IMG/VR virus record: IMGVR_UViG_3300031998_000017
Location: 32,001-96,000 of that record
Length of the DNA stretch: 64,000 bases
Origin: a virus
Taxonomy: Duplodnaviria > Caudoviricetes
Strand: one strand, 5' to 3'
Position numbers and translations under genes: made by a program
The notes under the pieces: model-generated
The model's input: only the letters and a program-made list of their open reading frames with translations
Database searches by the model: none
Told to the model about the DNA's origin: nothing
Shown: in pieces, positions 35,761 to 64,000 of the stretch
How positions within the stretch are numbered: position 1 is the stretch's first letter
Layout: each line of letters starts with the position of its first letter

Positions 35761-35771
35761 GAGGTATTAAT

Positions 35772-38078: not shown

Positions 38079-38084
38079 TACATT

Positions 38085-38101
38085 GGACTAAATGTAATAA
38101 T
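38085..38101 (+). promoter_or_regulatory. Putative late promoter motif (copy 5)
   Basis: GGACTAAATGTAATAAT. Confidence 0.5.
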
Positions 38102-38107
38102 TTATTA

Positions 38108-38168
38108 TCCCCTCTTTTCAATAACATATAGAACATCTAATGTTATTGTTAGAGGGGAATTTTTATTT
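38108..38168 (+). terminator. Long terminator-like hairpin
   Basis: CCCCTCT..CAATAACAT / ATGTTATTG..AGAGGGG followed by a T-rich run. Confidence 0.6.
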
Positions 38169-38183
38169 AGGAGGGTTTTACAT

Positions 38184-38879: not shown

Positions 38880-38896
38880 GCTCTCTTTTTTATTTT
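38866..38896 (+). terminator. Intrinsic terminator
   Basis: AGAGAGC-AAATAA-GCTCTCT followed by a T-tract. Confidence 0.75.
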
Positions 38897-38913
38897 GGTC
38901 TAAAATAATTAAT
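38897..38913 (+). promoter_or_regulatory. Putative late promoter motif (copy 6)
   Basis: GGTCTAAAATAATTAAT. Confidence 0.5.
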
Positions 38914-38966
38914 TAAAGATAAAACTTTTTAAAGTATTATGAGAATATAAAATGAGTTAAAAGGAG

Positions 38967-40628
38967 ATGAATTATATGGCAATTATAAATTTATATCCAC
39001 CAGTGATTGATACTTATCAACCTGCGCAAATTAAGGGTTCTGCCTTAAGAATTTATTTTTCTATTTCAGATTATAATGTTTATAGTGAGATGAAAAATTT
39101 TGCGCAAATTACTATATCTGACCAAGAGTCTAATTTATCAGTTTTAGATAAAACAAAATATCCTACTCAAATAATGTTAAAAACAATAAATATTGATAAT
39201 ACTAGAACTGTTGATAAATATTATGTAGATATAGCCACAACTGATGGAACCTTTGATATAGATAAATTTTATAAAGTTCAAATCAGATTTACTAGTTCAA
39301 CAGCAACAGCAGTCAGTTTAACTACACCTCAAGCTATTGATGCTTGGCTTAGTTTAAATCTTGATAAATTTTCAGAATGGTCAAGAGTAACGTTAATTAA
39401 ATGGATTGCGCAAAATTCTATTAGTATTAATGGAACTACTATTGGAATTAGCACTACAATTAATTTACCTGTGTCTGATGAAACTTTATTAGGTAAACTT
39501 ACTTTTAATGAAAAAAGTGAAGAATATTTAAATAGTTATAGATTTAAACTATATGACGATGAAGAAAATTTACTTTTAGATAGTGATTTATTATATACAG
39601 ATAAAAATTCTAATGATATAAATGAATTTTGATATAAATTAAAATATGGATTAACTGCTGGTGAAGATTATACACTTAATATTTATTATCAAACTAATAG
39701 TTTATATAGTAGAGAATTAAATTGCACTATTTCAGCAACTGGTAGCACTGGTTCAGACCAAGGCTTTATATTTAGTGCTCATGAAAATATTGAAGATGGA
39801 GAAATATTACTTCGTATAACAAGACCTCCACAAGCTACGTTTACAGGTAAAATAACAATTAAACGTTCTTGCGATAAAGATGCATTTACTATATGAGAAG
39901 ATATGCATACAGTAGATGTAAACGGGGTTACAAATTATTTATATGACTGAACAGACCAAACTGTTGAAAGTGGTGTGTTATATAAATATGCTTTATTAGA
40001 AACTTATACTAGTAATAATAATGAAGTTAGTTATTGAAAAGATTATAATAAAATACTAATGATAGTATTGGATGATATGTATTTAGATGTGGCAGGACAA
40101 CAATTAAAAGTTCAATTTAATCCACAAGTTAGTTCATTCAAAAGAGTTATTAACGAAGGAAAAATTGAAACAATAGGTTCTCCATATCCTTACATAAGAA
40201 GAAATGCAGCAATCAATTATGCGCAATTTCCTATTTCAGGACTTATATCTTGTCAAATGGATGAAAATGAAAAATTTATTACAAAAGAAGCTTTATATGG
40301 CGGAAGAGAATTTTTAAGAAAATATGAACAATTTAATTCTTATGCTACTAATGAGCCTTTTGAAACTACTATTGGTAATGATTTTGTTTATGAAAAGAAA
40401 TTTAGAGATGCGGTTATGGCATTTTTAATGGATGGTAAAGTAAAATTATTTAGGTCAGCTTCTGAAGGTAATTACTTAGTTAGATTGACAGATGTATCAT
40501 TTGCTCCTAATCAACAATTAGGTAGAATGGTATGGACATTTAGCGCAACCGCTAATGAAATTGCTGATAATACTATTGATAATTATTATAAATATAATAT
40601 TTTAGAAGAGTATAAACCATCAGAGTAA
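38967..40628 (+). CDS. Putative baseplate/distal-tail-type structural protein (553 aa, code 4)
   Basis: Two track ORFs in one frame joined by TGAs; FN3-like segment (*TDQTVESGVLYKY); C-terminal ETIGSPYP...KLFRSASEGN...W.FSATANE. Confidence 0.65.
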
Positions 40629-40639
40629 GGAGGTTGCCT

Positions 40640-42679
40640 ATGAAAAGAAATTATCCTTATTGAAATGATAAAGATTTTTTATATACAATAGATACTTTGC
40701 CAGTGTCAAATGAATATGTAAGAGTGATTGCACTAACTTGGGAAGATGAACCTATTCAAGAGATTCAAGGTTTAATTACAGATGGTAGTTTAACTATCAA
40801 TGGAGATTCTTCAATGCGTAGAGCAGTTAACTTTACTGCGGCCTTTCAAGATAATTCATTTGCGCAAATTACAGATGTAGATAATATATTTTCAATTAAT
40901 AAAAGAATATATTTAGAAAAAGGAATTACCAATACAACAGGACAATACACTGACTATCCTATTATTTGACAACCTCTTGGCGAATATATCATTATAAATT
41001 GTAGTGTATCTCATGATGCGGGTAATGTTTCCGTTAGCGTGCAAGCGCAAGATAAAATGTGTTTACTTAATGGAACATGCGGAGGTACAATTCCTGCATC
41101 TACACAATTAGACAGTTATGATACTCTTGATGAAAATGGAGATTGAATATTAACTAAACCAGTTGTTGCGCAAATTATTCGTGAAGTTGTAAATCACTTT
41201 GGCGGAGAGCAATTAAGTAAAATTATTATTAATGATATTGATAATCAAATAAAAGCGGTTATGCGTTGATTAGGAACAACTCCTATTTATTTAATTGAAT
41301 CTCAAGGTCAAGCAACTTTAACAACTGTAACTCCTAGTAGTATGGTTGGTGTTAAAAAATATGAGTATGGGGATGACGTTGGATACATTTACACTGATTA
41401 TATATATAATAAAGAATTAATTGCAAATCCTGGAGATAATGTTTGTTCTATATTAGACCAAATGGTTTCTTACCTAGGAGGTAATTATGAATATTTCTAT
41501 GATATATGAGGAAATTTTATATTTCAAGAGAAAAAGAATTATGTAAATATTTCTCATGCAGAAACAATACATATAAATACATTAATAAACGAAGATTATA
41601 AATATGATATGTTAAGTGGTAAACGCGCTTTTGATTTTAGCAATTTACCAATATTTACTTCTTTTTCTAATAGTCCTCAATATAATAATATTAAAAATGA
41701 CTATGTAGTATGAGGGATGAGAAAAACTCCAGAAGGATTAAATATTCCTATTCGTTTCCATTTAGCTATTGACCAAAAACCAAAAACAGGAAATACATAT
41801 AAAGTGTTTTTCTATACAGACCCAGATGATGGAATTGAAAAGGCACAAATGCCTGTTCAATATTCTAGTAAAAGTAATTTCCCTATGCAAGGAGCGGCTG
41901 GTGTATATTATGAAGATTCATCCAATGGTAAAATATATATATGAACATGGGTAGCTGCAGAGAATCCTGTAAATAGTAAATATGATTATAAAGAAATTGC
42001 GGATTATAGCAAATTTGAAAATATTACTACTACTGACTGACGTAGTGAATTATATTTACAAGGAGTAGCTGCAGAACCATTAGGTTTAAAATCTAATTTC
42101 TATTATACAGAACTTGCAAATGAATGACCTAAATTATATAATTTACATACAGGAACTTGGAGACAAGAAGTAATAGATGACCCTAGGTCTGTTGATTATT
42201 TCTTAGATTTCATTGATGATAGCGCAGCAGTAGGTAAGTTTAGCATAAGCAATATAGGGCGTAGGTCTATGGTAGAAAGCAAAGATGATTTTAATTGTGT
42301 TTTTGAAAATGTTATTCCTGACTATGTTTTAATTGAAAACGGTCAAGATGATACTTATGCAAAGAGAGAAGATTGTATTAAACGTAATCAAGCATATATA
42401 CAAATAGATAGCAGTATATATAAAGGTTTAGGACTTGGAGGAATATATAATAGCTGTTTTAATGAAATTAAAATGTTATTATATGAAAAAACAGGGTATA
42501 ACGAATCTATTCAAATGAACTGTTTACCAATTTATCATCTTGAACCTAATATTCGTATAGGCGCTAAAGATATATCAAGTGATATCTATGGTGATTATAT
42601 GTTAAAATCAATGACAATACCTCTACGTGCAGGTGGAACGATGTCCATTAGCGCAACTAGAGTTACTGAGAAATTATAA
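40640..42679 (+). CDS. DUF5048-like tail/baseplate hub protein (679 aa, code 4)
   Basis: GGAGG RBS; IQEIQG.ITDGSLTINGDSSMRR, QDKMCLLNG, EYFYDI*GNFIFQ, LPIYHLEPN; ends at TAA. Confidence 0.7.
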
Positions 42680-42810: not shown

Positions 42811-43317
42811 TTATTCTCAATTTATCTCATTATTGTCTTGAGCTTGATATTGCGCTAATCCTATACATATAGCATCAGCTTCATCATCATTAACTTTAAT
42901 GTAATATTTATTTTGAACAAATTCAACATCTGCTTCTTTTAATGTCATACGTTTGATACCACGTCCATTTTTAATTCCAAGAGAAGCGCGTCAAGAGCTA
43001 GGATAAATATAATCAATATCTACGCCAGGCATTTCATCATGAATTCAAAAAGCAACAGCAGCTTGTAATCACATTAGCGCACGATGGGTCTTAAGATTCC
43101 CTACCCCATATCCACCTTCAGGTCTTACTTCTTCCACTACTATTTTAGATGGAGTAAAATGTGTTGTTACAGTTTTTAATTCTTTAACTATTTTTTCTAT
43201 TCTATTGATTAAGTCTGTTGAGGATGCAGTTATACACCCATGTGCAATTAATTGACCATCTTCAAAAAATGCTCAACCTGTTGATTTAGTTGATAAATCT
43301 AAACTTAGTATATTCAT
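42811..43317 (-). CDS. ruvC: RuvC-like Holliday junction resolvase (168 aa, code 4), missed by the ORF track
   Basis: MNILSLDLSTKSTG*A, IVVEE, YPSS*R, NDDEADAICIG. All five Trp codons are TGA. Confidence 0.85.
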
Positions 43318-44471
43318 TATATTGTCATCTCCTGGCTACCATCTTCTGATGTTACTTTTATAAGTTCAACAAATTTCTTTTTATATTTATTTCCACCATT
43401 TAAGTAATCATATCTTCCTTTACTAATAGGGAATGGAAATTTCTCGCCTGAATCTGGTATCTTGTTTAAACTTATGTCTCTTAAATGGCATTTTTGATAT
43501 TCATCTGTTGCTTTAACTCAGTATAATGCTTTTAATTCTTCTTGATATTTTGATTTACCAGGCGCTAATAATTTATCTCAACTATCTTCTTTAGGTTTAT
43601 ATTCAAATTTAAATTCTTTGTTCGCAATTTTATCTACGACATCTCTTAAATTAGAACAATCAAATTCAAGAGTTATAGAATTAGTATCGTCTAAACCTAT
43701 TTCTTTAAATACAGGGATAGGCGTTACAACAACAGGAACCCCTAAATTTAATGCCTCTACTATTGAATAACAATAGCCTTCATTATCAGATAATTGAACT
43801 AAGAAATCTGCTTGTGATATTTCGTTTATTATATCTAATTTTGGTTTTTTGATATGCATATGTGGACTTAATTTTTGATTTATAGTTCTATTTGAGTAGA
43901 CATCTCAATCATAATCAACACCAAGTTTATCAAGAGCATCAGCTAATTGAGCCATGCGGTTTCCGCCTTTTTCCACAGATAGGCGAGTAGCGCTGATTAG
44001 TTTTAGCTTATGGTGAGGTTTATCTGGTGCAAATGGATTATAGCACAACTCTGCGTCTTTACCAGTTACTCTTTTTCAAGCATCACATACTTGTTTAGAT
44101 ATCCCTATATATTTAGTAATTTTAGCATGTCCAGGGAAGTTTTCTCTTAATAGTTGATGACGATTAAGCATATCTTCGTAGTCACCATGCAATACTAAAT
44201 AATATCCATCAGTAGCTTCTACATTTTCTATAATATCTGTATTAAAATTAAAGAAGGCGCGAGTACATTTAAATTTCATACCAGGCATGTATTGAATACA
44301 TCTAACGTATTCACGTAATCTTTCTAATTGTTTTGGGTTACCTTGTTGATATACTATTGTTAAATCATAGTCTTTATATTTTTTAGCCAGATAATAAAAA
44401 AATGTTTCAATTCCGCCAATCTCTAATATAGAGTGGAAGTAATATAAATTGGTTGTTTTTATTGTTTCCAT
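43317..44471 (-). CDS. GT-B (GT4-like) glycosyltransferase (384 aa, code 4)
   Basis: IGGIETF, ISATRLSVEKG, EGYCYSIVEALNLGVPVVVT (EX7E). Joins track ORFs 44076-44471 and 43578-43859. Confidence 0.85.
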
Positions 44472-45670
44472 TAGTTACCCCTTTCTTTTGATACCTCTCC
44501 TCTGTCGTATCTACGAGTCAAACTATCTTTTCTAATATTATAATAATATATAATGTTTTTACTAAATCCTATTGTAAGGTCTGGAATTTTAAATACTTTC
44601 TCTCAAAATTCATTTTCTTCTCCAACATTTAATTTATTATTAAATCTAATGTTTTCAAATATTCTTTTTTTAAATAAGCAACCTCATGGGGCTATATTAA
44701 TTTGTTTTGTTGAATTCACTATTGCTTGGCCATATGTACTATCTCAACTTAACCAAGTTAAATCATTGTGCTTTTTAGCTTCTTCTATAATTGTAAAAGC
44801 ATAATTTTCTAATATTTTATCATCACAATCTATAAAAACTATATAATCTCCTGTTGCGGCATCCAACCCTACGTTTCTAGACCCTGGGCCTCCAAGATTT
44901 TTTGGATTTTTAATATAGATGTCAACCATTTTAGAAAGTTTATCTCCATCTCTACTATCATCTACTAATATTAATTCAGTATTTGTTCCTTTTCTTTGTT
45001 TATTTAATTCTTCTATAAGATTTTTAGTTAAATCATAAGTTTTATAATAAGGAATAATAATACTAATTTTTTCTTGAGGAGGTTGTAATTTTCTTATAAA
45101 TTCTTCATATTCATAAGGATAATCTATATCGTCTGTGCCATCTAAAATTTTTACATATCTATTTGTAATATGATGTTCTTCATAAGGAAGATTATTCATG
45201 CAACGATAAATTTCTCAACCAATACAACGATGAATTTGTTGTGTTAAATAAAGATTTTTAACTATCTTTTTACAATCATAGAAAAATTTTTTATTTACAA
45301 TTTTAATCGCAAATATTTCTCATTCATGACCAAAATATAATACATCATCTGTAGGAGTGTTTACTATTGTTTTAATTGCATTTTCAGTATAATAAACATC
45401 TCCATACAGATAACATATAGGTTCATTTGTGTTTATTTCTTCAAACCTATCAATTTCACAATCATGATAAGATTGTTCCATTGTTAAGCCGTATTGAGCA
45501 TAACAATTATTGGCGCATGTAATAATATAATCGGTTGCACCATTTTCTTTTAATAGTCTAGTTGTTCTACCTAATAAAGTTTCTCCATTTATTTCAATTA
45601 AATGTTTTGGTATCCCGAGGTAATTATTCCAGCGGGTACCAGCTCCAGCCGCCATAATAATATATTTCAT
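44471..45670 (-). CDS. Nucleotidyltransferase-like / GT2 glycosyltransferase fusion (399 aa, code 4)
   Basis: N-terminal IIMAAGAGTRW...PKHLIEINGE...LYGDVYY; C-terminal ISIIIPYY, LVDD, RNVGLDAATGDYIVFIDCDD. One frame joined by TGAs. Confidence 0.82.
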
Positions 45671-46149: not shown

Positions 46150-46177
46150 ATTATATCACAAAAATCTAACTCTGTCA
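46150..46177 (-). promoter_or_regulatory. SigmaA-type promoter
   Basis: TTGACA-N17-TATAAT with extended -10 TG. Confidence 0.8.
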
Positions 46178-46219
46178 AACTTTTGTGCAAATAAAAAAGT
46201 GATTTTCATCACTTATTTT

Positions 46220-50250: not shown

Positions 50251-50727
50251 TTATCTTAAAATTCTAATACGTTGATTGCGGCTGCCGCGCCATTTCAAAG
50301 TTATGTCACGCTTGTCTTGCATATAAGGGCCATCAATTAAATAATTTATATTTTTTAATATATAAGTCATACTAGAATTAATTTTTAAATCTTTATATTC
50401 ATATCCAGTTCAAATTGCTATTTTAATATTTGGATACTTGTCTTTAACTTTATATATAAGTTGTTTTACAAATTCTATTTTTTCATCAGTATCAAGAGGT
50501 TCTCCTCCAAGAATACTTAAATTTCTTTGAATTCCATTATCTGCTATTGCGGAAATGATATATTCAATTAATTCATCTTCCACTCAAGCTTGACCTCCAT
50601 TTGGGTCTCATGCTTCTGGATTATGACATCCAGGACAGCGAAAATGACAACCTTGAAGGAATAAACTTACGCTTACTCCTTCACCATTAATGACGTCATT
50701 TTTATTCAAACCAGCAACCCTAATCAT
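50251..50727 (-). CDS. nrdG: Anaerobic ribonucleotide reductase activase (158 aa, code 4), missed by the ORF track
   Basis: GCHFRCPGCHNPEA*D radical-SAM motif, LSILGGEP, I*TGY, LIDGPY, WRGSRNQR. Confidence 0.93.
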
Positions 50728-52918
50728 TTCAATTCTCCAATAGTTTGCTGTGTTTGTACCTTTGTTCGGTTTCTTGAATTTTACCTTTATTAAAGGCAGT
50801 TTTATAATCTCCTGTTAGATATCCAGTTACTCTACGTAATTGTTGAATATGTTTACTATGACACATTGGACATTCATCATTAAATTCATCAGTATATCCG
50901 CAATCTAAGCAAGTGTCATTTGGAACATTAATTGCAAAGTAAGGGATATCTTTATCCATTGCATAGTTTACTATTGTTTCAAGAGCTTCAAGATTATTTT
51001 TAACTCCGCCCTCTAATTCAACATATGTAATACATCCTGCATTACTATATCCTGTTAGTTGACTTTCTATATCAATTTTTTCAAATGGGCTCATTTCTTT
51101 CCATACTGGTACGTGTATACTATTAGTGAAGTAATCTCTGTCAGATACATTAGGAATAATTCCATATTTATCTTTAAATTTTTTCATTGATGTATAACAC
51201 ATATTTTCAGCAGGCGTATAATAAACACCAATATTTAAATGTAATTCTTTTTTAAATTGTGCGCATCTGTCTTTAAATAATTGTTCAATTCTTTTCGCTA
51301 ATTCCATCCCTCTTGGTTCGGTATGGTCACAACCCAACAAGATTTGTAATGTTTCCGCCAATCCAATTTGACCTATAACAAGAGTACCATGTTTCATTGC
51401 ACTTTCAACTGTTTTTCCATCATACCCAAGCATGATATTATTTTCATACATGAATTTTGCTGATTCAGGTGATTGACTAATTATCCATTGATATCTTTCT
51501 AATAACATATCTCTTGCTTCATGGATTTTTTTGTCTAGTAATTCCATAAATTTTTCAACATCTTTATCTGCTTCCATAGCTAATGTTGGCATCACTATTG
51601 TTACTGGACATATATTTCCGCGACCATCTTTAGTTTGTGGATTAGTTCCAGATTCTGCATTTATATCGCTACCATTATATGTTCTACATCCCATTGTAGA
51701 TACATAAGTTTTAGGGTCATTAACATCGTATCCAGCATTAACAGACCAGTCTACATTAACATAGTTAGGATATAATCTTTGAGCTGTTGATTTAAGGGCT
51801 AACTTAAATAAATCATAGTTAGGGTCTCCAGGTTTACGATTGACACCTTTCATACATTGGAAGATACCGCATGGGAATATAGGAGTTTTTCTAACTTTAC
51901 CAACACCTTCAATAGAACCTTCTAGTAATGCTTTTGTAACCATTCTACCTTCAGGTAAAATGCAAGTCCCATAATTAATTGATGTAAATGGTAATTGATT
52001 TCCGCTACGAGATTGTAATGTATTTAAATTATGATACATACCTTGAACTGCTTGCATTAATTCTTTTTCAGTCATATCCATTGCATATCTATATGCGTTT
52101 GGATGAGAAGTATAAACTTCATCATCAATAGATAAACCATCGACTAATTCTAAACCTACATGTTCAATATATCTCATTCCATCAATCCAATGTTTTTTGA
52201 ATGATAATCTTACATATGGAACCATAGTCCAATCTAAATGACTAGCGCTAACGCCTCCAAATTGTTGTAAAGATTGTAATTGGAATAATACAGCTACTAA
52301 TTGAAATGCTGTGTTAATTGAGCGCGCTGGTCTTACATCTGTTTGTCTAGTATTGAAACCTTTTGCTAATAACATATCAAAAGGAACAGTTAAACAGTTG
52401 TGCATACCAACTGCATATGCATCTAAATCATGAATATATACTTCATTATTTAAATGGTTCTCTCTAGCCATTGGTGAAACTAGATAATTAAGCGCATAGT
52501 CTTTCATAAGCGCTGACCTTGCTTCTCCCATACGGCCACCGAATGAATATTCATCAATGTTAGCATTTTGATTTTGAACATTTGATGCTTCAATCTTTTC
52601 TTTTATATCCTTCATTAAATGAGAGTTTTTATTTCTTATTTTACTTCTCTCTTCTCTATAAAGAATATATTCTTTTGCTACGTCTTTGCGCTTACAACTC
52701 ATTAAACCTTTTTCAACTAAATCTTGAATTTCCTCTATTTCAGGTGTCTCATCAACATCTAAATAGTATCCTTCAATATAGTCTGCTATGTTTTCTGCTT
52801 TTGCTTGCGCATAATCTGTAATCTCGCCATCTACTGCTTGAAACGCTTTCAAAATTGCGTTCTTGATTTTAAAAGAGTCAAATGGCACAACTCTCCCATC
52901 ACGTTTAATAACGTTCAT
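50720..52918 (-). CDS. nrdD: Class III anaerobic ribonucleoside-triphosphate reductase with ATP-cone
   Basis: VIKRDG ATP-cone, HIHDLD-like motif, MGCRT, TPAE, CxxC...CxxC, RRVTGYL. Code-11 stop at 50729 (TGA); code-4 stop at 50720 (TAG). Confidence 0.96.
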
Positions 52919-52992
52919 ATAAGTTCCTCCTTAGTATTTAATTATTTCAAGGATTTAACCTTTATATCTATATGAAAAACAAAAGTAAATAA

Positions 52993-53532
52993 TTATTTAC
53001 TTCTGCTTAATTTTAAGTCTTGCAAATCTAATTCGCGTTCATTATCAAAAACTTTATATTCAAAAGGAATATCTTGAAAATCTTCCTCATCTGTCATATA
53101 ACGTCTACATATCTCTGCACAATCTGGATTTTCTTCTCTTTTAAGTGCGCGGATAAGTCTAGTTTTGTCTGTCGCTTGAACATATACAGGATGCACATCT
53201 AATCTATCATCTTTTAACATATTAACAATACCTGATATATTAAATACACCTACGTTAGTTTTATCTGGGTCTAATCCGTCAATAGGAGTACCATAAAACC
53301 AATTGCGGAAGATAGTTGTTTCCAACATATCTCCACTAATTGTTTTTCTAGTAAATTCATCTTCGGTTAAGAAGAAATAGTCTACTCCTTCTTCTTCATA
53401 ATCTCTTTTAGGGCGTGTTGTGCAACTAACCACTTTATGATAATTAGTGTTTTGGTCTAACATCATTTTTTGTAGTGTATCTTTACCAGCGGCGCTTTTA
53501 CCGAATAGTGCAATTATTTTTATTTTATTCAT
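52993..53532 (-). CDS. gmk: Guanylate kinase-like protein
   Basis: GKSAAGKDT, SCTTRPKRDYEEEGVDYFF, YGT. Confidence 0.88.
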   Translation of the reverse strand: MNKIKIIALFGKSAAGKDTLQKMMLDQNTNYHKVVSCTTRPKRDYEEEGVDYFFLTEDEFTRKTISGDMLETTIFRNWFYGTPIDGLDPDKTNVGVFNISGIVNMLKDDRLDVHPVYVQATDKTRLIRALKREENPDCAEICRRYMTDEEDFQDIPFEYKVFDNERELDLQDLKLSRSK

Positions 53533-56500
53533 CTGACATAACCCCCTCTCTATCGTGAGTAAGTTCTACATTTCCTTTCTCATCAATAGATGTTATCTTA
53601 TATAATTGATGGAAACCTGTATTCTTATAAGTTTTTGCTACAAATGTATCATCTCTGCGGAACCCCGCTACTAACAATTTGACACCTCTTGTAAACCAAC
53701 CTTTTTCAGTTACATGCTTTGTTCCATCTTCTCCCATTTCACTTAATTGTCTATTATACATTGTAAAATAATCTTTTGTAAATTTAACATTTACTACACC
53801 TGTTGGAGTTAATAATGTTACAGATGAACGTGTATCATTCTTACCTATAACTGTTCCAACTATTTTATGTATTCTATAAATCGGTAGTTCGTGTCCATTT
53901 CTTTTAAAATATGTGTCAACAATAGGTTCACTAGGAAGTGAATCAAAATCTATAACACCATACTTACTTTTATTAATATGCGCTAATTCATGCTCATGAT
54001 AATAGAAACATAATGCTTCCATTTCATACGCGCTAATGTTACCTAACGCATATTTATCCCAACATTCTTTAAATAACAAGTCATTAAAATCTCTCAATAT
54101 TTGACTTTGATTATCTCTAATCCAATCACGCGCACTATCCATTTGCGCCTGATAAATTTTTTCCCATCTGTCTTGTAAGATACAAGTTAATCCATTTATT
54201 ATTTCTAACTGGTCAGAGTCAAAATACTTATTATAAAATTCTTCACATTCGCTATCAAAGACATAATACTTTCCTGTCTTTTTATTTGCTTTTAAATACT
54301 TTGTGAACAAGAATGTTTTCTTTTGCAAATCTAATTCACTAGGAACTAAATTATGTTGTATTAAACCATTAAAGTTTTGTAAAGTTATTCTTTTCTTTGC
54401 TTCACACACTTTTGAGATATAATATGCCATAACCGCCATACGAGGTTCAATACCTAATTCTTTTCCTAAATCTATTTCTAACTTATCAAAAGCTCCTGCT
54501 TTAATCAAACTAAACATTGCGCTTTTGTTAAGTGGACATCTTGCCATAAAATCTTGTATACCGCTATATGGACGGTTCGCAATAATCTGGTCGATAATCG
54601 GACCTCCAACATTATTTAATGCTTTCATACCAAATAAGATTTCATTATTTTCTACATCTGGTTCAAAACTATATGATGATTTATTTATATCAACTAAACT
54701 AACTCTAATTCCTCTTGATATAATATCACCAATAGCTTTTGCTATTTTACCATAATCAGTTCCGCGCTCTTTCTTTTCTACATTTCCTTCTTCATCTTCT
54801 TCAAACTCATCACCATCTTCAAGACTACCACTATTAACTACTAAACACGCTGTGTTCCAATAGATAGGATTCCATCTTGTTGCAATATACATTGTTTGAA
54901 AACCGATGAAACTATATGCTAATGCGTGGATGATACTAAATGAATATCCCATCTGAGGACCGATACCACATGTCCATACATAATTGCCTAAACATGGAGA
55001 TTTAGCTTGATTTAATACCTTTTGACGAAGTTCAGGTATCTTACTCATTTGTTTCTTACCAACAACTTTACGTGCTGCGTTCGCTTCTGCTAATGTAAAT
55101 CCACATATATTCTCATCCATTAACATCTTCATTAATTGTTCCTGACTTGGCGGAACTCCATATGAAGTTTTAAAATATGGCTCTAATGTTTTTTGCTCCG
55201 CTTGAGTTAAACCATATTCGCGCATTTCTTTATACCACAATGAGATATCATTCTTAAATCTAATATATTTTTCCATTGGAGTTTCTTGACCTTTTTCTGC
55301 TGTCATTAATCTCATTAATCCATTTGCGTCTGCCATTTCTAACATTGACCCCGGCTTAATTTTCTTAGCCGCTTGTCCGCCAACATCACTATCAAACTGG
55401 AAGATATTTAATACACTATTCTCTTGAAGAACTTTCCATATATCTTCATCATCAATAGGCAATACACTTGGGTGAAAATACTTATCATAAATTTCTCTTA
55501 ATGTCAAGTCACTCTCAATTTCACCATAATCTTGCAACATTCTGATTGCTTCTGCTAATTTATCTTGAACTTCTGTTACTAAGAAATCATACTTTGTCAT
55601 ACCACATGCTTCACACATATGTAGGTCATATGATGTGATTACTTCACCTCTTGGAGTTCTCATAAATGTTCCAAATTCATATGGGTCTTCATCAAATAAG
55701 ATAACTCCTGAAGCATGTGAACTTCTTTTATTTATCAATCCTTCAATTCCGTCCATTATATCTAATAGACCAGGATATAAATTTACTTCATTTATAAATG
55801 TTTTAATTGGCTTACGACCTTTATCTTCATTCCCATTTATAACATCTGCAAGAGGCCATAAGAATCCACGTTCACTTGGGATAAGTGAACTTAAATATTG
55901 CGCTGTATCAACATCTATTCCATCTGGATACTCTTCACTACGATAACCGCGGCATGCAGTTAAGATTGTTGAACGAGTTCCTTCTGTTCCAAATGTTGCT
56001 ATTAATGTACATCCTAAATTCTTACGACTTAATTCATCTATATCACTCTTGAAGTTTTGTCCTCTTTCTTTTTTAATTTCATTTAATATCTTAGGACGCT
56101 TACTTGGACATAAATCTAAGTCAATATCACCTAATTCTACACGTTCTTTATTTAAATAACGCCAGAATGGAAGTTCCCATTTAATTGGGTCAAGCTGTGT
56201 AATACCTAATAGATAGTGATTCAAACCTGAACAACTTGAACCACGTCCTGCTCCTACGATACTTCCGCAATTCCAAAACAAATCAACATAGTGCTGTAAA
56301 GTTACTGGATATGCAAACATATTTGTTCCTAACTTACCACTAATTGTTCTTTTAATATCTGCCTCTTCCTCAAGTCTACTCAAATATGTTTCATTATACA
56401 AATCTTTTGTGATTAATTTATTAACACATTCATTAACCCAATATCTTTCAATTTTGTCATCAGACATATACATACTATTTAATATTGGATAATCTTTTAA

Positions 56501-57466
56501 CTGGTCTGTTTTACCATATTCTTTTACTTCAACTTGCGGAATAGTTTGCGCATGTGCTAAACTATACTTTTCTATTTTATTCCAAATTTCATAACTATTT
56601 TCAAACATTTGTTCAACGAACTCATTATCAAAACCAGATGCTGCCAAATGTTCTTTAATTTCATCATTTGTTTGAAGATATGCAAATTCATAGAACTCAT
56701 CTACTTCACGCTCTCCAAACTTACTGTTAAGATATGCTTTATGAACATATCTATCTTCTTTTTTAAGATAATGCGCATCTGACCCTATTACCATTTTCAA
56801 ATCAAATGCTTTTGCAATAGCAGGAAATCTTTTATTAACTAAAACTTGTTCTCTTGATGTTCCTGGTGCACATTCTATATAAAAGTTACCTTCTCCAAAC
56901 ACTTCTTTACCCCATAATAAGAAGTTTACTATATTATTATGTGCGATTGCCGCACCATTTGTATCCCCCGTTTGTTCTGCTGTAATAAGCGCCAATGTAT
57001 TAACACTCAACTCTCCTCCTAAACATGCTGTTGTTGCTATCAAACTGTTAGGATACTTTTTCATTATTTCTTCAATATCACTTTTTAATGTTGGGACTCT
57101 TTCAAGACCTCTATCCCAATAACTATTCATCCACGCTCTTGATGATAATTCTCTCAATACTCTATGACCTTCTTTATTTTTTGCAATCAAAATAAAGTGA
57201 TAATATCTTTGCCCCATATCACGCGTGTCTGTTAAATATATTTCATTTCCTAATGCTATTTTAAAATCAGGATTCTCTTTCTCTACTTCAGATTGATAAA
57301 AGTTTATCTCTGGATGAGAGGATACACATTCATGGTCAGTTATTGCGATACCTGATAACCCTAATTCAATAGCTCTGTTGATTAAATCTTTAGGTCTATT
57401 GATTGAGTCAAGCAAACGCAAATTACTATAATGTGTATGTGAGTGAACTTCAAATCTATTTCCCAT
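53525..57466 (-). CDS. dnaE: DNA polymerase III alpha subunit (family C, PHP domain)
   Basis: HSHTHYS, ITDHE, GAGRGS, DIDLD, SHASGV, KYDFL, C-terminal OB fold. AAGGAGG RBS before ATG 57466. Confidence 0.95.
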   Translation of the reverse strand: MGNRFEVHSHTHYSNLRLLDSINRPKDLINRAIELGLSGIAITDHECVSSHPEINFYQSEVEKENPDFKIALGNEIYLTDTRDMGQRYYHFILIAKNKEGHRVLRELSSRAWMNSYWDRGLERVPTLKSDIEEIMKKYPNSLIATTACLGGELSVNTLALITAEQTGDTNGAAIAHNNIVNFLLWGKEVFGEGNFYIECAPGTSREQVLVNKRFPAIAKAFDLKMVIGSDAHYLKKEDRYVHKAYLNSKFGEREVDEFYEFAYLQTNDEIKEHLAASGFDNEFVEQMFENSYEIWNKIEKYSLAHAQTIPQVEVKEYGKTDQLKDYPILNSMYMSDDKIERYWVNECVNKLITKDLYNETYLSRLEEEADIKRTISGKLGTNMFAYPVTLQHYVDLFWNCGSIVGAGRGSSCSGLNHYLLGITQLDPIKWELPFWRYLNKERVELGDIDLDLCPSKRPKILNEIKKERGQNFKSDIDELSRKNLGCTLIATFGTEGTRSTILTACRGYRSEEYPDGIDVDTAQYLSSLIPSERGFLWPLADVINGNEDKGRKPIKTFINEVNLYPGLLDIMDGIEGLINKRSSHASGVILFDEDPYEFGTFMRTPRGEVITSYDLHMCEACGMTKYDFLVTEVQDKLAEAIRMLQDYGEIESDLTLREIYDKYFHPSVLPIDDEDIWKVLQENSVLNIFQFDSDVGGQAAKKIKPGSMLEMADANGLMRLMTAEKGQETPMEKYIRFKNDISLWYKEMREYGLTQAEQKTLEPYFKTSYGVPPSQEQLMKMLMDENICGFTLAEANAARKVVGKKQMSKIPELRQKVLNQAKSPCLGNYVWTCGIGPQMGYSFSIIHALAYSFIGFQTMYIATRWNPIYWNTACLVVNSGSLEDGDEFEEDEEGNVEKKERGTDYGKIAKAIGDIISRGIRVSLVDINKSSYSFEPDVENNEILFGMKALNNVGGPIIDQIIANRPYSGIQDFMARCPLNKSAMFSLIKAGAFDKLEIDLGKELGIEPRMAVMAYYISKVCEAKKRITLQNFNGLIQHNLVPSELDLQKKTFLFTKYLKANKKTGKYYVFDSECEEFYNKYFDSDQLEIINGLTCILQDRWEKIYQAQMDSARDWIRDNQSQILRDFNDLLFKECWDKYALGNISAYEMEALCFYYHEHELAHINKSKYGVIDFDSLPSEPIVDTYFKRNGHELPIYRIHKIVGTVIGKNDTRSSVTLLTPTGVVNVKFTKDYFTMYNRQLSEMGEDGTKHVTEKGWFTRGVKLLVAGFRRDDTFVAKTYKNTGFHQLYKITSIDEKGNVELTHDREGVMSDE

Positions 57467-57495
57467 TTTTTCCTCCTTTTCCATCTTATAATAAT

Positions 57496-57524
57496 ATTAT
57501 ATCATTTTTTTAATTAAAAGTCAA
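57496..57524 (-). promoter_or_regulatory. SigmaA-type promoter for dnaE
   Basis: TTGACT-N17-TATAAT with extended -10 TG. Confidence 0.8.
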
Positions 57525-58029
57525 ATGGTAAGTGTTTGATGGAGGCTAAGTTATTTATTGGATAATCCAGCTCTTTACATTCCCATCCATGTTTAGTAAA
57601 ATATTCTTGCAAAGGAATACGTTCACTACACATATTACCAGGTGCTTCATATACTATTAAAACTAAAATTATTTCTTCTTCAATATTATTATCTTTTGCA
57701 TATTTATCGGCGAGATTGCGCATATCCGCAATCATCTCATCAAAATCTATTTTATCTAAATTCTTTCTATAATTACTTAAAAAAGAACAAATTGTAAAAT
57801 TTTTTTCTTGGCAAGGGCATGGGACAGGTTCTTGTTCTCCACATTTCTTACCAGCTTGAATAATAGGATTAATTCTTACACCATTTAGAATTTTTCTTGC
57901 ATTATAAAAAATATGATTCTCTCCTTGGTTTGCGTGAAACCAAGTTGGGTCCCACAACGCTGTGGATATGGGAATCATATTACGATTAAAATTTCTAATT
58001 TGATAAAAGTAACTAGTCCTTATTTTCAT
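57514..58029 (-). CDS. Hypothetical protein (weak DUF488-like pattern)
   Basis: IRTSYF...PISTA...LIVYE....CSER. Confidence 0.6.
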   Translation of the reverse strand: MKIRTSYFYQIRNFNRNMIPISTALWDPTWFHANQGENHIFYNARKILNGVRINPIIQAGKKCGEQEPVPCPCQEKNFTICSFLSNYRKNLDKIDFDEMIADMRNLADKYAKDNNIEEEIILVLIVYEAPGNMCSERIPLQEYFTKHGWECKELDYPINNLASIKHLPFDF

Positions 58030-58246
58030 TATTTTCTTCCTTTAGCATAGTCTTTAAACATCTAATTAAATCTTTAATTTCTTTTTTCTTTTCAAATTGC
58101 ACAACTGCAACTGCACCTTTTTTGCTAATAGGGATATTTATTGTTAAAGCTTCATCAACAATAAAATGATTACCAATTCTTTTTGCTTTACAAGGGGCTA
58201 CTAATTGCAATTCCGCAAGTTCTTGACAATTATTTATATTTCTCAT
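58013..58246 (-). CDS. Hypothetical protein
   Basis: Overlaps both neighbours in the operon. Confidence 0.6.
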   Translation of the reverse strand: MRNINNCQELAELQLVAPCKAKRIGNHFIVDEALTINIPISKKGAVAVVQFEKKKEIKDLIRCLKTMLKEENNENKD

Positions 58247-58518
58247 TATGCAGATTCTTCTGTTGTTCTATGCTTAGGATGGAAACCACCATTATTTTTA
58301 TAAAAGTTTTTGATAGCATTGAAAATAATTTGACTATCTAGTTGTTCTTGACTTTTGCTTCCATTTACTTTCCATCTAAAAGCAAATTTAGCTGGTCTTG
58401 TTCCAGGGTATAAATCAATAATTTTATATACTCCTAATTTACCTTTGGCATTTATTTCTTGATACCATATTGCCCATCTGTCATCTACTACTCTGTCAAT
58501 CTTATATAATTTACTCAT
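58246..58518 (-). CDS. Hypothetical protein
   Basis: GAGGAG RBS. Confidence 0.65.
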   Translation of the reverse strand: MSKLYKIDRVVDDRWAIWYQEINAKGKLGVYKIIDLYPGTRPAKFAFRWKVNGSKSQEQLDSQIIFNAIKNFYKNNGGFHPKHRTTEESA

Positions 58519-58530
58519 TCTATCTCTCCT

Positions 58531-59721
58531 CTATTTTCTTATTATTACCAATTTCTTTGCAGCTCTGGTACAAGCTGTATATAACCATCTCTTATGCTCT
58601 TCTAAAACATAAGGGAACCCCTCTTCTATAACCAAGACCTTATCCCATTCACTGCCTTGCGCTTTGTGGCAAGTGATAGCATATCCATAAGTAAACTGGT
58701 CAGGCACCATATTCATATAGCGCCAATTCCTACGCATCTTATATGTAGTCTTCCAATCTAATCCCGGCTCACCTGTTAAGATTAATTTCTTATCCATTTC
58801 TAATTCGCCATAGCTTTCACCTGTATCTGATATAAATTCCGCATGAATAATATCTAATTTCTTAGCTTTGCCATCGCTAGTTATTCTACCAGGTAGGTTA
58901 ATATAAGTACTGAAGCTATTGTTTAAATAACCAATAGTTCCATTAACTAATGGGTTATCATCGTTTGAAAAGACCTCCCAGTTATTCTTTAAACAAATAA
59001 CTTTGTCTCCATCTTCAGGGTCGCCTTCATGTCCTAACAAGTCACGCATTTGATTATTTAGTGCAACTCTTGTTGCATTAGTGGCGCATATTATTTGGTC
59101 AGCCCATTCTAACATTCCTGTTGATAATTCATCTTTATCTAATATCTGAACTTGTTGACCGATATAATGATTAAGTGGTTTTCCTTCACGAATATCCATT
59201 GTTAATTTAATAATCTCACTTTCCGCCTCTTGACGCATAATTTCATCTAGGAAGATATGCGGATTATCTAATAAATGGTTATCTTCACTTTTGTCAACTG
59301 GTGGCAACTGACCAGGGTCTCCTAAACATATAATATGCACAGGATAACTTGCTAATCGTTGCAATAAATCTTTTGGTACCATAGACACTTCATCTACTAT
59401 TACTACTTTATAAGGTACTATCTCCACAGGTTTACGAAAGAATGTCCCATCAGGACGAGGTATACTCTCAAACAAGAGTTTATGTAAAGTGCTTACATTT
59501 TTATTACCTTTCTTTTGTAAGACCTGTGTTGCTTTACCTGTGAACGATGTATATACCACATCTAATTCAGGGTCTATATCTGGGAGGGCCGATATGATAA
59601 ATTTAACTAGTGTTGATTTCCCTGTTCCTGCATATCCAGCTATGACTGTATATTTAGAACCATCGTTGTATCTATCAACAGCAATTTGCAAACCTTGCTT
59701 TTGCTTGTCGTTTAATTCCAT
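58531..59721 (-). CDS. SF1B RecD/Dda-like DNA helicase
   Basis: GYAGTGKS, IVDEVSMV, GDPGQLPPV, YAITCHKAQGSEW, LYTACTRA. Confidence 0.92.
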   Translation of the reverse strand: MELNDKQKQGLQIAVDRYNDGSKYTVIAGYAGTGKSTLVKFIISALPDIDPELDVVYTSFTGKATQVLQKKGNKNVSTLHKLLFESIPRPDGTFFRKPVEIVPYKVVIVDEVSMVPKDLLQRLASYPVHIICLGDPGQLPPVDKSEDNHLLDNPHIFLDEIMRQEAESEIIKLTMDIREGKPLNHYIGQQVQILDKDELSTGMLEWADQIICATNATRVALNNQMRDLLGHEGDPEDGDKVICLKNNWEVFSNDDNPLVNGTIGYLNNSFSTYINLPGRITSDGKAKKLDIIHAEFISDTGESYGELEMDKKLILTGEPGLDWKTTYKMRRNWRYMNMVPDQFTYGYAITCHKAQGSEWDKVLVIEEGFPYVLEEHKRWLYTACTRAAKKLVIIRK

Positions 59722-59741
59722 AACTCCTCCTTTATATTATA

Positions 59742-59770
59742 ATTATATCATATTTCTTTATAAAAATCAA
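59742..59770 (-). promoter_or_regulatory. SigmaA-type promoter
   Basis: TTGATT-N17-TATAAT with extended -10 TG. Confidence 0.75.
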
Positions 59771-61522
59771 TTAAAACAAATATTTACCTGAACCTACTAC
59801 TTCATAATCTTCTACAAATAATTGTGGAGTTCTTATTCCATTTCATTCATTTATATTACATTTTCCTACTGCGTTGATTGATATATAAGCCGTATCAAAT
59901 TCTTCAAATGTTTCACAATCTTTATCAGTAGCATTAAATATCATTAAACTTATTTTATTTTGTAATGTTATTTTTAATGTATTACTTGTTTTTCTATAAA
60001 CTGTTACCATATCTTTACTAACTTTTAAATTTTCTATTGCGATATATGGTTCATCCATATCTTTTCCCCATAAATCACTAAGACTAGCAATAGTAAGAAT
60101 ATCATTAGCTTGAACGTCTGCTCCTGTGTAGATATAGTCTACATAATATACTGGCTCTGCGGAAATGCTTGCTAATGCTGCGTCAGTCTTGGTTAAGAAC
60201 TCTTGAACCGCCTCTGCCGCCAAACACATACCAAATGCATTTTCATGTCCCTGGCACCATTCCGCCCCAGACTCTTCGCATATAGTCTTAAAATTAGTTA
60301 TACCAGTCATTTCATATCCGCGCGCACTGCCTTGATATCCCTCTGGAGTATCAAATAATATGCAACATGGACGTTGATATTTATTAGCTAACTTATTTGC
60401 TATAAGACCTGCTATATTTCTATCTATTGCTCCGCTATCAAGAGTAAACAATATAACTTTATGGTCAAGTAGATTGTCAGACTTCATCTGTCTTTCTAAA
60501 TCTTCCATAGCTTTATCTTGTTCTCTTGTCTGTCTATTCTTTACATTATTAGAAGTTCTAATTGCTTGGTCAACTATTCTTTCCATTTCACCAGGCGCAT
60601 GTCCGCGCTTAGTAGATGGAACCATTTTAAAAGCTTCATACTTAAGCATTGACTTAAATAGCAATTCTTTTTCTTCTATTGTTCCACTACGTTGAACTGC
60701 ATTAACTAGGGGAACTATATAAAAGGCTGCTCCTATTGAAGTAAGGTGCTCACCTAATTTAAACTTATTTTTTTGCCATGACTCATATAGATATGGGTTA
60801 TGAATATTTTCAGGTTCAAAACCTTTTGTTATAATATGTTTTGTTTCTATTGATGTTAGGCTCATCATATCTCCGCAGTTACCTAAAGCTACTAGGTCTA
60901 TATAATTATCTGCGTTGTTACCGCCTAATTGTTGGTCTAAGTATCTGCAAAATTGCCATACTATACCAACTCCTGAAAAATCTTTATTACTATAATCACT
61001 TAATTGATTATTTATAACTATTGCATATTCACTTACTTTATTAGCTAAGTGGTGGTCTAAGATAATAATATCTTTACCTTGACCTTTAAGTGTCAAATGC
61101 GCATCATAATCATTGGAACCAGCATCTGGAACTATAATTAATTCAAAATCTCTATAATTGATATAGTCCATACAATCATTAATTCCATGCTGTTTTCCTT
61201 CGTGCACCCATCACTTTAAGTTATTTTCAACCCAAGCAGGGAATAAATCATGAAGATAGTTAATTAATACTGCGGATGCGGTAAATCCATCGCAATCGCA
61301 ATCTACTATTACTAAAGCATTATCATTATTTTTAATGTGAGTAAGAAGCGTTCGAGCTGCTTTCACTAGACAATCTTGCCCAAGCGCCTCTGGTTTATTT
61401 ATATCTGCATCTGTTGTATTTAGATAATGCGCAACTTCTTCATAAGGGATATTTCTATTTGTTAATATTTGTTCTATTGTATTATATAATGGATTAATAG
61501 GTTTTATTAATTTGTATTGCAT
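59771..61522 (-). CDS. recJ: RecJ-like ssDNA exonuclease, DHH family (583 aa, code 4)
   Basis: DCDCDG, DAGSN, LDHH, GSARG, GHENAFG, C-terminal NE*NG..TPQ. Joins track ORFs through TGA at 61211 and 59843. Confidence 0.92.
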
Positions 61523-61534
61523 TATCTATTTCAC

Positions 61535-61741
61535 CTAATTCAAAATCATTGCAATTATTACAAAGATAATTAAGAATAATACGACTAATGCTGCTGGAAT
61601 CCAAAGTGGTGCTAATACCCATAGCCAACCCCAATTAATAACTCCACACAATTTTAATACTACAAATGCTATTGTTAACAATCCACAAAATCCTATTCCT
61701 CCGCTACGAACTACTGTTGTATTCTTATCATTATAATTCAT
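61535..61741 (-). CDS. Small two-TM membrane protein
   Basis: GGIGFCGLLTIAFVVLKLCGVINWGWLWVLAPLWIP. Confidence 0.75.
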   Translation of the reverse strand: MNYNDKNTTVVRSGGIGFCGLLTIAFVVLKLCGVINWGWLWVLAPLWIPAALVVLFLIIFVIIAMILN

Positions 61742-62832
61742 TATATTATTATTCTCCTTTCAAACAACTCTAAAAATGTATCTGGTCCTTTATCAATAGG
61801 ACTATCTTTATAGCCTAATAAATTCCATTTATCAAACATAAAGCTAATTTTAATTAAAGGACTATATTTCTTATTTATATCTTTTAATTTTTTTGTCCAA
61901 CCTTTAAATTCATTATCCCCTATTTCTTTAAATTGCTTATCAAAAGCAACAACAATTTCTTCTACATCTAGTGATTGTAGGAGCTGTACTTGATAGTTAG
62001 TTAAGTTACTTCCGCAAACTGCAACACTTATATCATTATCAAAACCAAAGTATGATTGATATAATAAGCAACTCTTTTCTCCTTCAAATACAATTACTTT
62101 TTTCATTCTTCTTATATTATGCTTACTATTATTCAAATTATATAAGTTGAAACCTAATGGGTGATTATACATTTGATAATTTAATATCGCAGGTTTATAC
62201 TTACCATTAGCTTCTTCTTCTTTTATCATTGTTCTTTCTCTGATACCAATTAACTTACCATCAATATTATAATGCGGGATTACTATACCCCAGTTAACTG
62301 GGTCAAAAGCAATACCACTATGATTCATTGATTCCTGTGTGATTCCTTCATCTAACCATGCTGGAATCTTAGGACGCGGTAAATATCTTAATATCTTATC
62401 ATCATAATATTTAAATTCTACAATTCTCTCTTCTTTTGTTTCTTGTTTCTTCTCATAATTATTTAATATTTTCCAATCGTCAGTTTCTGCGCTGCTATAT
62501 ACTTCATTATTAAAAGAAACATTTAATCCAAAGAAATTTATAATAAAATTAATTGATTGCATTAATGTATATTCAATATTTTTTAATTTTTTTACTTTTA
62601 TTATAAAGTCAAAAACATCAAAGGTATCTGAACACTCTGTATAACATCTAAATAACTTTGTGTTGTCATAATAATATAGCTTATGGCTACTTCCGCCATG
62701 ACACAAAGTCCTTGATATTATTAGCTCTCCTTTGATGACCGGGTCTCCGCCTAGGGCATATAACAATTCCTTTACTTGGTCTATTGTTAAACTATTTTTG
62801 ATGTTTTCTGACCACTCTTTAAGATTGTCCAT
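61741..62832 (-). CDS. DNA primase-like protein (Zn-binding plus TOPRIM)
   Basis: CH...CYTEC, IVIPH, VFEGEKS, VVAFD. GAGGTG RBS before ATG 62832. Confidence 0.82.
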   Translation of the reverse strand: MDNLKEWSENIKNSLTIDQVKELLYALGGDPVIKGELIISRTLCHGGSSHKLYYYDNTKLFRCYTECSDTFDVFDFIIKVKKLKNIEYTLMQSINFIINFFGLNVSFNNEVYSSAETDDWKILNNYEKKQETKEERIVEFKYYDDKILRYLPRPKIPAWLDEGITQESMNHSGIAFDPVNWGIVIPHYNIDGKLIGIRERTMIKEEEANGKYKPAILNYQMYNHPLGFNLYNLNNSKHNIRRMKKVIVFEGEKSCLLYQSYFGFDNDISVAVCGSNLTNYQVQLLQSLDVEEIVVAFDKQFKEIGDNEFKGWTKKLKDINKKYSPLIKISFMFDKWNLLGYKDSPIDKGPDTFLELFERRIII

Positions 62833-62860
62833 ATGAACACCTCTTTTCCTATATATAATA

Positions 62861-62889
62861 ATTATATAATAAATTATTAAAATAGTCAA
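62861..62889 (-). promoter_or_regulatory. SigmaA-type promoter
   Basis: TTGACT-N17-TATAAT. Confidence 0.75.
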
Positions 62890-63999
62890 TTAGAAAGCGG
62901 AAACCTGCATCTTTGGATTTACATTTATTTGTAAATCAGGTAAATCTATTAGCTGATAATTATAATCAGTAGCGAACATAGGTATTACTCTACATGTTCC
63001 TTGATTTGCCTTACATCATAATAATATATCTTTGTATTGTCCTCTACGATTTTTATATACTGAAATCTTTATTGCGGGCTCTTCAAATTTAAAGCGCGCT
63101 ATAACTTCTCTTAAGGCTTCTTTATCTTCTTTACTTGTCTTAAGCATAATCATACCTAAGTCAATTTTGTCGGCTATTGATTTAGCACCACGCAATAGGT
63201 TTTGGTCATATTGTTGAGCGGTAGTGTAATCAGCATTTAACTGTGTAGCAGTTAAGATAAACACACCATATTCATTACATAGGTCTTTAAGTTTAATAGA
63301 AATCATAAATAATACATTATCTTCTCTTAAACCTTTTATTCCTGTTTTCGATGTAACCTCACTCAATATCTTCATTGACGTATGTAAGTAATCGAAAAAG
63401 ATATATCGTACATCCCATTCATGTATACCAAATTTAATAGTGTTTTCGATGTCCTTCATAGAAAAGTCAGGAAGTTTCTTAATGTAGATTGGACATTTTT
63501 TCAATAACTCTGCTGCATATAGAACTCTTTCTAGCTCTCCTTCTTCATAGTTGTTATAAATTATATGGCTTTCGTTTACATCAGATAAGAACGCAAGCAT
63601 CATTGTTTGTATCTCATCTACTTCTTGCTCTGTTGTGATAAACATAGTAGGTTCTTTCGTTCCATTGTCTATCCATTTTCCTTGTTCTGAATCATATATT
63701 CTATCGCATGCAATAGAGCATGAATCAGCTATCATACTACGAGTTTTACCAACACCTGTAGCCGCAGAACGTAAATAGAATTTCTTTAAACGAGCTCCAC
63801 GCGTAACTGTGTTAATGTAAGGGCCATACATTGGGTAACCAATCTCAGGTCTTTTTTGTAAACTTTCGATAAGTTCGTTGACTTTATCTCCTGCTTGAAT
63901 GAAATCCTCATTAGAATCATCTACATATTTCATTCTTATTTCAGTTATTTTTTTATCTATTAAATCCGCAATAGCGTCAAGAGATGAATTATCTAACCA
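62890..63999 (-). CDS. DnaB-like replicative helicase, 5'-truncated by the window
   Basis: SAATGVGKT, FITTEQ, FFDYL, TATQLN, GAKSIADKID, YKNRRG. Reads through TGA 63016 to TAA 62890. Confidence 0.88.
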
Positions 64000-64000
64000 A

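Follow-up and report, generated by a model that had tools for sequence, protein, structure and literature searches.

Here we describe a 64,000-bp window (bases 32001-96000 of the 134,901-bp IMG/VR record IMGVR_UViG_3300031998_000017, 31% G+C) from a phage in which, on comparative evidence, TGA encodes tryptophan and in which the use of this codon differs strongly from gene to gene. Recoding affects the genes of the tail and fibres and a small number of others. We consider it reasonably probable that this pattern results from purifying selection against TGG-to-TGA changes in genes that are made before a code switch or in very large amounts, with AT-driven drift to TGA elsewhere. The gene content of the record is that of a large tailed phage; IMG/VR classes it as linear and 89% complete, and the sequencing runs containing this DNA point to bovine and other animal guts as its habitat. 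Phage sequence was also seen in one RNA run, as a small share. Feature coordinates below refer to the window, whose own genome we call G000, unless they are given as genome positions, and paired numbers are TGA and TGG codons counted in open reading frames (ORFs) under code 4.

The tail block contains 95 TGA and 67 TGG codons (59% TGA) versus 11 and 107 (9%) in the replication block (Fisher p = 2e-18). This tabulation by functional block, which a preliminary description of the window had proposed for the whole genome, gave 14/2 for RuvC and the glycosyltransferases, 13/7 for two large genes that follow the lysis cassette, 7/32 for head and packaging and 3/44 for the right end. TGA is present in 38 of the 97 genes of at least 100 aa (39%). 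The among-gene heterogeneity of TGA use was 237, a value exceeding all of 5000 permutations (mean 123, maximum 173). Several of the few TGAs in the otherwise clean blocks are artefacts created when an ORF was extended at either end, or belong to spurious ORFs over tRNA genes.

The gene counts on which the preliminary description was built were reproduced. The DnaE-type DNA polymerase III alpha subunit has no TGA and 18 TGG (53525-57484; with guanylate kinase, 0/1, it spans 52993..57484, minus strand), and the same holds on a smaller scale for the Dda/RecD-like helicase (0/6; 58531..59721, minus; PHROG 325, E=2e-97) and the DNA primase (0/6; 61741..62889, minus; PHROG 47). NrdD (50720..52918, minus; PHROG 487, E=5e-195) has 5 TGG and one near-terminal TGA. 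At the other extreme stand the 2737-aa tail tape measure protein (19/7; 489..8702, plus; PHROG 4211, E=1e-73) and the RuvC resolvase (5/0). The observation that no internal TGA occurs between 50.7 and 59.7 kb also held: among 37 tryptophan codons in this interval the sole TGA is the near-terminal one of nrdD (P = 1.8e-6 at the genome-wide TGA share of 35.6%). That codon (50729-50731; codon 730 of 732) lies three codons before a TAG and 1 nt ahead of the nrdG ATG, and because of this stop-restart layout it is probably a genuine stop with a coupled nrdG restart under the standard code.

The broader claim, that most of the replication core can be read in either code and the virion genes cannot, stood in part. 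The replication block conforms for the most part, with exceptions in the NrdG activase (3/1; 50251..50727, minus; PHROG 626, E=6e-44), in the RecJ-like exonuclease, whose two in-frame TGAs (codons 104 and 560, against 6 TGG; 59771..61522, minus) are both covered by its PHROG 2484 match, and in the DnaB-like helicase, which continues beyond the window end (1/4, the TGA at codon 471 of 512; 62890..64000, minus; PHROG 19). Among virion genes the claim is borne out by those of the tail and fibres and fails for the head core, where eight consecutive genes (TerL, portal, phrog_3313, the probable capsid protein and small neighbours) contain 0 TGA and 23 TGG, as well as for the unrecoded endolysin (0/4) and holin-like protein (0/3), which lie at 34735..36245 on the plus strand (PHROG endolysin families; the holin-like protein has a Phage_holin_4_1 match below the Pfam cut-off). 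A division into early and virion genes thus gave way, since the head and lysis genes are as free of TGA as the replication genes.

Base composition was ruled out as the cause of the pattern because out-of-frame TGA is equally frequent across blocks (19-26 per kb) and the A-ending share of Lys, Glu and Gln codons is 77-92% throughout. Evolutionary rate and gene length were also rejected, the TGA share being uncorrelated with ortholog identity (rho = -0.06) and with length (rho = 0.03). Poorly conserved early genes had 0/34 TGA.

A search of IMG/VR with DnaE returned 50 loci at 49-99% identity, many of them on contigs of 100-144 kb, and we compared five whole genomes of relatives (G001 to G005). 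Two of these, G003 and G004, are standard-code phages: both tables give them about equal coding density, TGA terminates 15-18% of their genes and neither has a tRNA(UCA). When the TGA codons of G000 were aligned to these two genomes, 36 of the 60 that could be aligned to a residue faced a TGG-encoded tryptophan. Coverage of G000 by ORFs of at least 100 aa rose from 0.605 under code 11 to 0.804 under code 4. Both results argue that TGA encodes tryptophan in this phage.

At conserved tryptophan columns, G000 has TGA in 1/35 (3%) of those in replication genes, 2/20 (10%) in head genes and 12/16 (75%) in the late set, and G002 is similar. The corresponding shares in G001 and G005 are 29%, 38-40% and 62-81%, and G003 and G004 have no TGA at any such column. 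Conserved Lys, Glu and Gln columns are 80-88% A-ending in the replication, head and late classes alike. Throughout the 50 relatives, DnaE is TGA-free in 35; summed over 26 recoded relatives it has 30 TGA and 440 TGG versus 508 and 782 in the neighbours within 10 kb on either side, and DnaE lies below its flanks in each, with the reservation that these relatives are themselves mutually related, so that the pooled significance overstates their independence. One lineage at 83% DnaE identity has 6 TGA among its 19 tryptophan codons in DnaE, compared with 0/18 in G000 and G002; with up to 6 TGA in the DnaE of some relatives, a standard-readable replication core is not a hard rule. The probable capsid protein is TGA-free in all four recoded genomes (0/19 in total), as is the tail-tube-like protein (0/4). 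The DnaE comparisons suggest that the segregation of TGA reflects selection and not lack of time, and that DnaE is specifically protected, a protection that can be lost. The DnaE genes of several relatives (L039, L040, L043-L045, L053, L054) contain an insertion of ~1 kb that has an ORF of its own and is probably an intron or an intein carrying a homing endonuclease.

The distribution of TGA also follows the transcriptional layout. A rightward block runs from a helix-turn-helix (HTH)/Zn-ribbon protein through TerL, portal, head, tail, the tape measure protein and two fibre-like giants (3533 and 2809 aa) to the lysis cassette. The leftward block begins with phosphoesterase, RNase H, type II topoisomerase, NAD ligase and Sak4, and goes on to DnaB, primase, RecJ, the Dda-like helicase, DnaE, guanylate kinase, NrdD, NrdG, two glycosyltransferases and RuvC. 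Matches to the sigma-A consensus at 11/12 or better number 57 in the genome versus 13.7 in shuffles; they lie between genes in the right orientation, often with an extended -10, and cluster in the left 3-14 kb of the genome, in the leftward replication block and in the tRNA and right-end region. Within the window, one match (11/12; 57496..57524, minus; genome 89524-89496) lies directly upstream of dnaE and another (12/12, extended -10, intergenic; 46150..46178, minus; genome 78178-78150) 30 nt upstream of a gene. The 61-kb late block (genome 16.6-77.6 kb) has only 4-5 matches, of which a single one is intergenic and in sense orientation. The link drawn in the preliminary description between sigma-A promoters and TGA-poor genes was thereby upheld at the level of blocks.

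TGA is nearly absent from the genes of the promoter-rich blocks: from the small left-end genes and the 15 genes that open the leftward block, from DnaE, helicase and primase, and from the right end. It is abundant only in the tail and fibre part of the promoter-poor rightward block and where the leftward block ends. The 15 opening genes have 0/36 TGA in G000, 0/33 in G002 and 1/39 in G001; beyond them TGA begins at DnaB and peaks at the RuvC end, where RuvC, a glycosyltransferase (4/0) and an NTP-transferase/GT2 protein (5/2) lie at 42811..45670 on the minus strand. Judged from sequence, the promoters and the gene order agree with the idea that a gene stays TGA-free if it is read by the unmodified machinery of the host. 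Genome positions 3300-14400 (L001) contain about two dozen near-consensus sigma-A promoters with extended -10, mostly 15-50 nt upstream of small leftward genes and some arranged as tandem triplets ~90 nt apart, and this region looks like a host-takeover early region. Inspection by eye of 11 late intergenic regions revealed no convincing conserved late-promoter motif.

The preliminary description had suggested that a suppressor tRNA might be encoded elsewhere in the genome, and one was found. A tRNA(UCA) of 96 nt, called by both ARAGORN and Rfam, is located outside the window at genome 121092-121187 (L004:9092-9187); it is of the tryptophan type (A1-U72, G73) and is a member of an array of 27 tRNAs downstream of sigma-A-like promoters at a divergent early region. 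An ordinary tRNA-Trp(CCA) lies 130 nt beyond it. The tRNA(UCA) appears five-armed: its variable region forms an extra stem-loop of 5-6 bp whose 7-nt loop, CUCCAAA, has the same sequence as the anticodon loop in tRNA-Trp(CCA). Scanning IMG/VR for this pattern gave 23 contigs with the design, and an alignment of 20 sequences showed the extra stem to be 98.8% paired, with compensatory changes in four of its five pairs; because the scan held both tRNA loops fixed, this covariation is the only independent evidence for the extra arm. For bacterial tryptophanyl-tRNA synthetase (TrpRS), the CCA anticodon and G73 are identity elements, which makes it an attractive explanation that the extra loop may be a decoy giving CCA identity to the host TrpRS. 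Full-text literature searches returned no description of a tryptophan suppressor tRNA with a second anticodon-like arm, a result that does not by itself prove novelty.

An insert interrupts the tRNA(UCA) gene of two relatives directly behind the first base of the anticodon; it measures 207 nt in one (L057, G001:22986-23288) and 605 nt in the other (L058, G005:106277-106978). The upstream exon ends in U and the insert in G, and the longer insert holds a 153-aa ORF; such insertions would fit a group I intron, and no group I intron model of Rfam matched them. Searches of the whole 134.9-kb record for release factors RF1 and RF2 (PF00472, PF03462) and for TrpRS (PF00579) gave no match, and the release factor, synthetase or RF2 antagonist also envisaged in the preliminary description did not turn up, their absence not being proven in a record that is 89% complete. 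The same tRNA region yielded two further Rfam matches at gathering level, each of 85 bits: an OLE RNA at genome 125565-125957 (L004:13565-13957), overlapping a tRNA-Tyr call, and a tmRNA at genome 115820-116228 (L004:3820-4228) with the tag ANKVKSLFSFNRVSFA, which does not have the usual LAA end.

The evidence on the host is indirect and favours a walled Bacillota bacterium that uses the standard code. Contigs of relatives were binned in four metagenome-assembled genomes (MAGs), two of Bacilli, one of Erysipelotrichaceae and one of Clostridium (L099-L102; three of the four measure only ~1.1 Mb), such binning being weak evidence of host. All four encode RF1 and RF2, the latter with an SPF or SPY motif. 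The endolysin has a PG_binding_1 domain (Pfam E=1.6e-11), and the standard-code sister phages point the same way as the peptidoglycan-binding domain and the release factors.

We therefore favour a sequence of events shaped by constraint. Early in infection, a host ribosome with active RF2 would complete only TGA-free genes; as the phage tRNA(UCA) accumulates, TGA would come to be read as tryptophan and the remaining genes would become translatable. Once the suppressor had been acquired, AT pressure would push TGG to TGA wherever this was tolerated, and selection would purge TGA from the genes needed before the tRNA builds up and from a few genes of bulk output, the latter of which may explain the TGA-free capsid protein and head core. 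The tail genes would be translated late as a result of this, without the delay having to be a selected timer. Because a single gene holds 35 in-frame TGAs, the reassignment of UGA late in infection is implied to be near-complete.

Several points weigh against this account. The early and late classes are assigned from promoters, gene order and function. The head core, the endolysin and the holin-like gene are TGA-free though presumably late, so that a second factor, expression level, is required. DnaB, RecJ and NrdG would need read-through of TGA, which means that replication is not fully independent of the switch. In G001 and G005 the DnaE, helicase and primase genes are recoded, and the constraint would thus be lineage-specific or could be bypassed. 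To these must be added the shared ancestry of the 26 recoded relatives and the weakness of MAG binning as evidence of host.

The explanation that survives best beside constraint is the adaptive one, put forward in the preliminary description and by Borges et al. (bioRxiv 10.1101/2021.08.26.457843), in which in-frame TGA is positively selected in late genes as a translational lock that keeps virion and lysis proteins from being made too early, before the phage has switched the code. The segregation of TGA and the promoter data are equally compatible with it. Two HNH homing endonucleases are recoded (2/0 and 3/0), which echoes the recoded intron endonuclease already published, and two genes at the start of the late block, those of the HTH/Zn-ribbon protein and phrog_3314, contain TGA in each of the four recoded genomes but lack it in the standard-code relatives, bar one probable stop artefact in G004. 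However, the proteins that would be most harmful if made early are left unlocked, namely the endolysin, the holin-like protein, the capsid, portal and terminase. Moreover, the TGA share of late genes (59-88%) never rises above the A-ending share of comparable two-fold codons (85-92%); it stays within the neutral expectation, drift alone is sufficient and there is no sign in it of tail-gene delay as a selected timer. On balance we find a selected lock doubtful.

Less probable still, and in our judgement improbable, is that translation efficiency alone is responsible: suppression would always be imperfect, TGA would be purged from genes of high or reliable output and timing would be irrelevant. 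The clean capsid and tail-tube-like proteins of the four recoded genomes agree with this, and DnaE stays clean even where its neighbours reach 50-60% TGA. Yet the genes for ligase, topoisomerase, Sak4, RNase H and many small early proteins are TGA-free though unlikely to be of high output, and the 19 and 35 TGAs in the genes for the 2737- and 3533-aa proteins would be ruinous if read-through were appreciably below 100%. The TGA-free genes coincide, besides, with the sigma-A promoter blocks and with promoter-proximal positions.

That the host itself uses code 4, the TGG-only replication genes having been recently imported from standard-code phages, is very hard to believe: the code is identical to that of the Mycoplasmatales and relatives are binned in small (1.1 Mb), low-GC 'Bacilli' MAGs, but the MAGs encode RF2, the sister phages are standard-code and use TGA stops, TGA is found in far fewer genes than the ~90% reported for phages of recoded hosts, the endolysin has its peptidoglycan-binding domain, and the replication module, whose orthologues keep one gene order even in relatives with as little as 55% DnaE identity, diverges in step with the remainder of the genome across the 50 relatives and has an A-ending codon share (0.80-0.83) close to that of other blocks. 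Recent import of this module, the alternative kept in the preliminary description, is refuted on these comparative grounds, because gene order is maintained across relatives. The known free-living bacteria with code 4 are wall-less.

A further, tentative proposal, which we rate as unlikely in its entirety, joins the tRNA to the layout of the genes. The five-armed tRNA(UCA) would make the code change, its extra loop showing CCA to the host TrpRS while UCA reads UGA; the density of TGA along the operons, zero near promoters and rising distally, would act as a graded translational clock; and the recoded HTH/Zn-ribbon protein might be the gate for the TGA-free head and lysis genes. This protein, labelled 'sigma factor' in PHROGs, is encoded at genome 16404-17711 (L002:404-1711), and has an invariant motif of four cysteines; its gene contains 3-4 TGAs in G000 and no fewer than one in each recoded relative. 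Its start is probably near codon 82, and it possibly contains a sigma-4-like HTH. The label was not confirmed by Pfam, by a sequence match in PDB or by a Foldseek match at E<=0.001; a weak match to the sigma-4-like HTH of 3mzy (Z 6.9, 75 residues) stood among many equally weak ones. A recoded sigma factor gating late transcription is speculative.

The phenomenon itself has been published: Borges et al. (bioRxiv 10.1101/2021.08.26.457843) described TGA-recoded gut phages with this pattern, with suppressor tRNAs, standard-code relatives at >90% average nucleotide identity and variable recoding of replication genes, and they proposed the model of early standard and late recoded translation. Our finding is a correct rediscovery in a further genome. 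The phage resembles their 'Agate'-type mixed-code phages by size, habitat, code and layout, the four features compared. Members of that clade have genomes of ~127-154 kb, include cattle gut among their sources, read TGA as tryptophan with a suppressor tRNA and have close standard-code relatives within the clade; TGA occurs in their structural genes and not in the nearby replication machinery, and they share with the present genome a strongly recoded tail gene upstream of the lysis cassette, recoded homing endonucleases and a GC skew with two replichores. The likeness ends at the lysis genes, which Borges et al. stressed as preferentially recoded; here only the tail gene upstream of the cassette and the DUF7841 gene downstream of it are recoded, and the endolysin, the holin-like protein and the head core are not. 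The local refinements are recoding centred on the tail, the gradient along gene order and the promoter map, together with an unusual suppressor tRNA.

Standard-code and recoded blocks, with late genes in the recoded block and a phage suppressor tRNA, are also found in crAss-like and Lak phages (Yutin et al. 2021, PMC7886860; Mgcod 10.1101/2022.06.29.495998). Those phages are of other lineages with Bacteroidota hosts and mostly reassign TAG to glutamine block by block, unlike the gene-specific gradient seen here. Among cultured phages, the closest relatives are large Bacillota siphoviruses (35-39% identity). DnaE shares 39% identity, across 98-99% of the protein, with that of Enterococcus phages EF1, H1 and VRE9 and of Bacillus phages SPbeta and phi3T, the homologue of the HTH/Zn-ribbon 'sigma factor' is 35-37% identical, and genome size is similar (127-142 kb); the similarity is nevertheless distant, and the records listed for them carry no annotation of recoding. 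Mycoplasma and Spiroplasma phages likewise read TGA as tryptophan, but they take the code from their host, and nearly all of their genes would be expected to contain TGA, unlike the 39% of genes, the phage-encoded tRNA(UCA) and the peptidoglycan-binding endolysin of the present phage.

The remaining features of the window belong mostly to the rightward late block. Downstream of the tape measure gene lies that of a giant tail protein of 3533 aa (35/36; 8820..19421, plus; PHROG tail families), followed by two tail- or baseplate-like proteins of 704 aa (7/3) and 451 aa (5/7) at 19439..22921 (plus; PHROG 372 and 6465) and by fibre-like giants of 2809 aa (18/11) and 845 aa (11/2) at 23384..34354 (plus). 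Beyond the lysis genes, the late block ends with the DUF7841 protein (3/0) and proteins of 231 aa (0/1), 553 aa (4/4) and 681 aa (9/3) at 37641..42679 (plus), whose TGA positions align to TGG in the standard-code relatives. The last 127 nt of the record are an exact repeat of genome 1841-1967, which may be an assembly overlap or an internal repeat.

For annotation, these results mean that the code has to be handled gene by gene, because a single table fails in either direction. For the biology of the phage, they limit the reading of recoding as a 'lysis timer', since the genes under the lock are those of the tail and fibres and a few for DNA processing, with the lysis and head genes free of it. 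Taken as a whole, the clade forms a natural series, from standard code through partly recoded genomes to a recoded replication core, that is usable for the stepwise study of code change.

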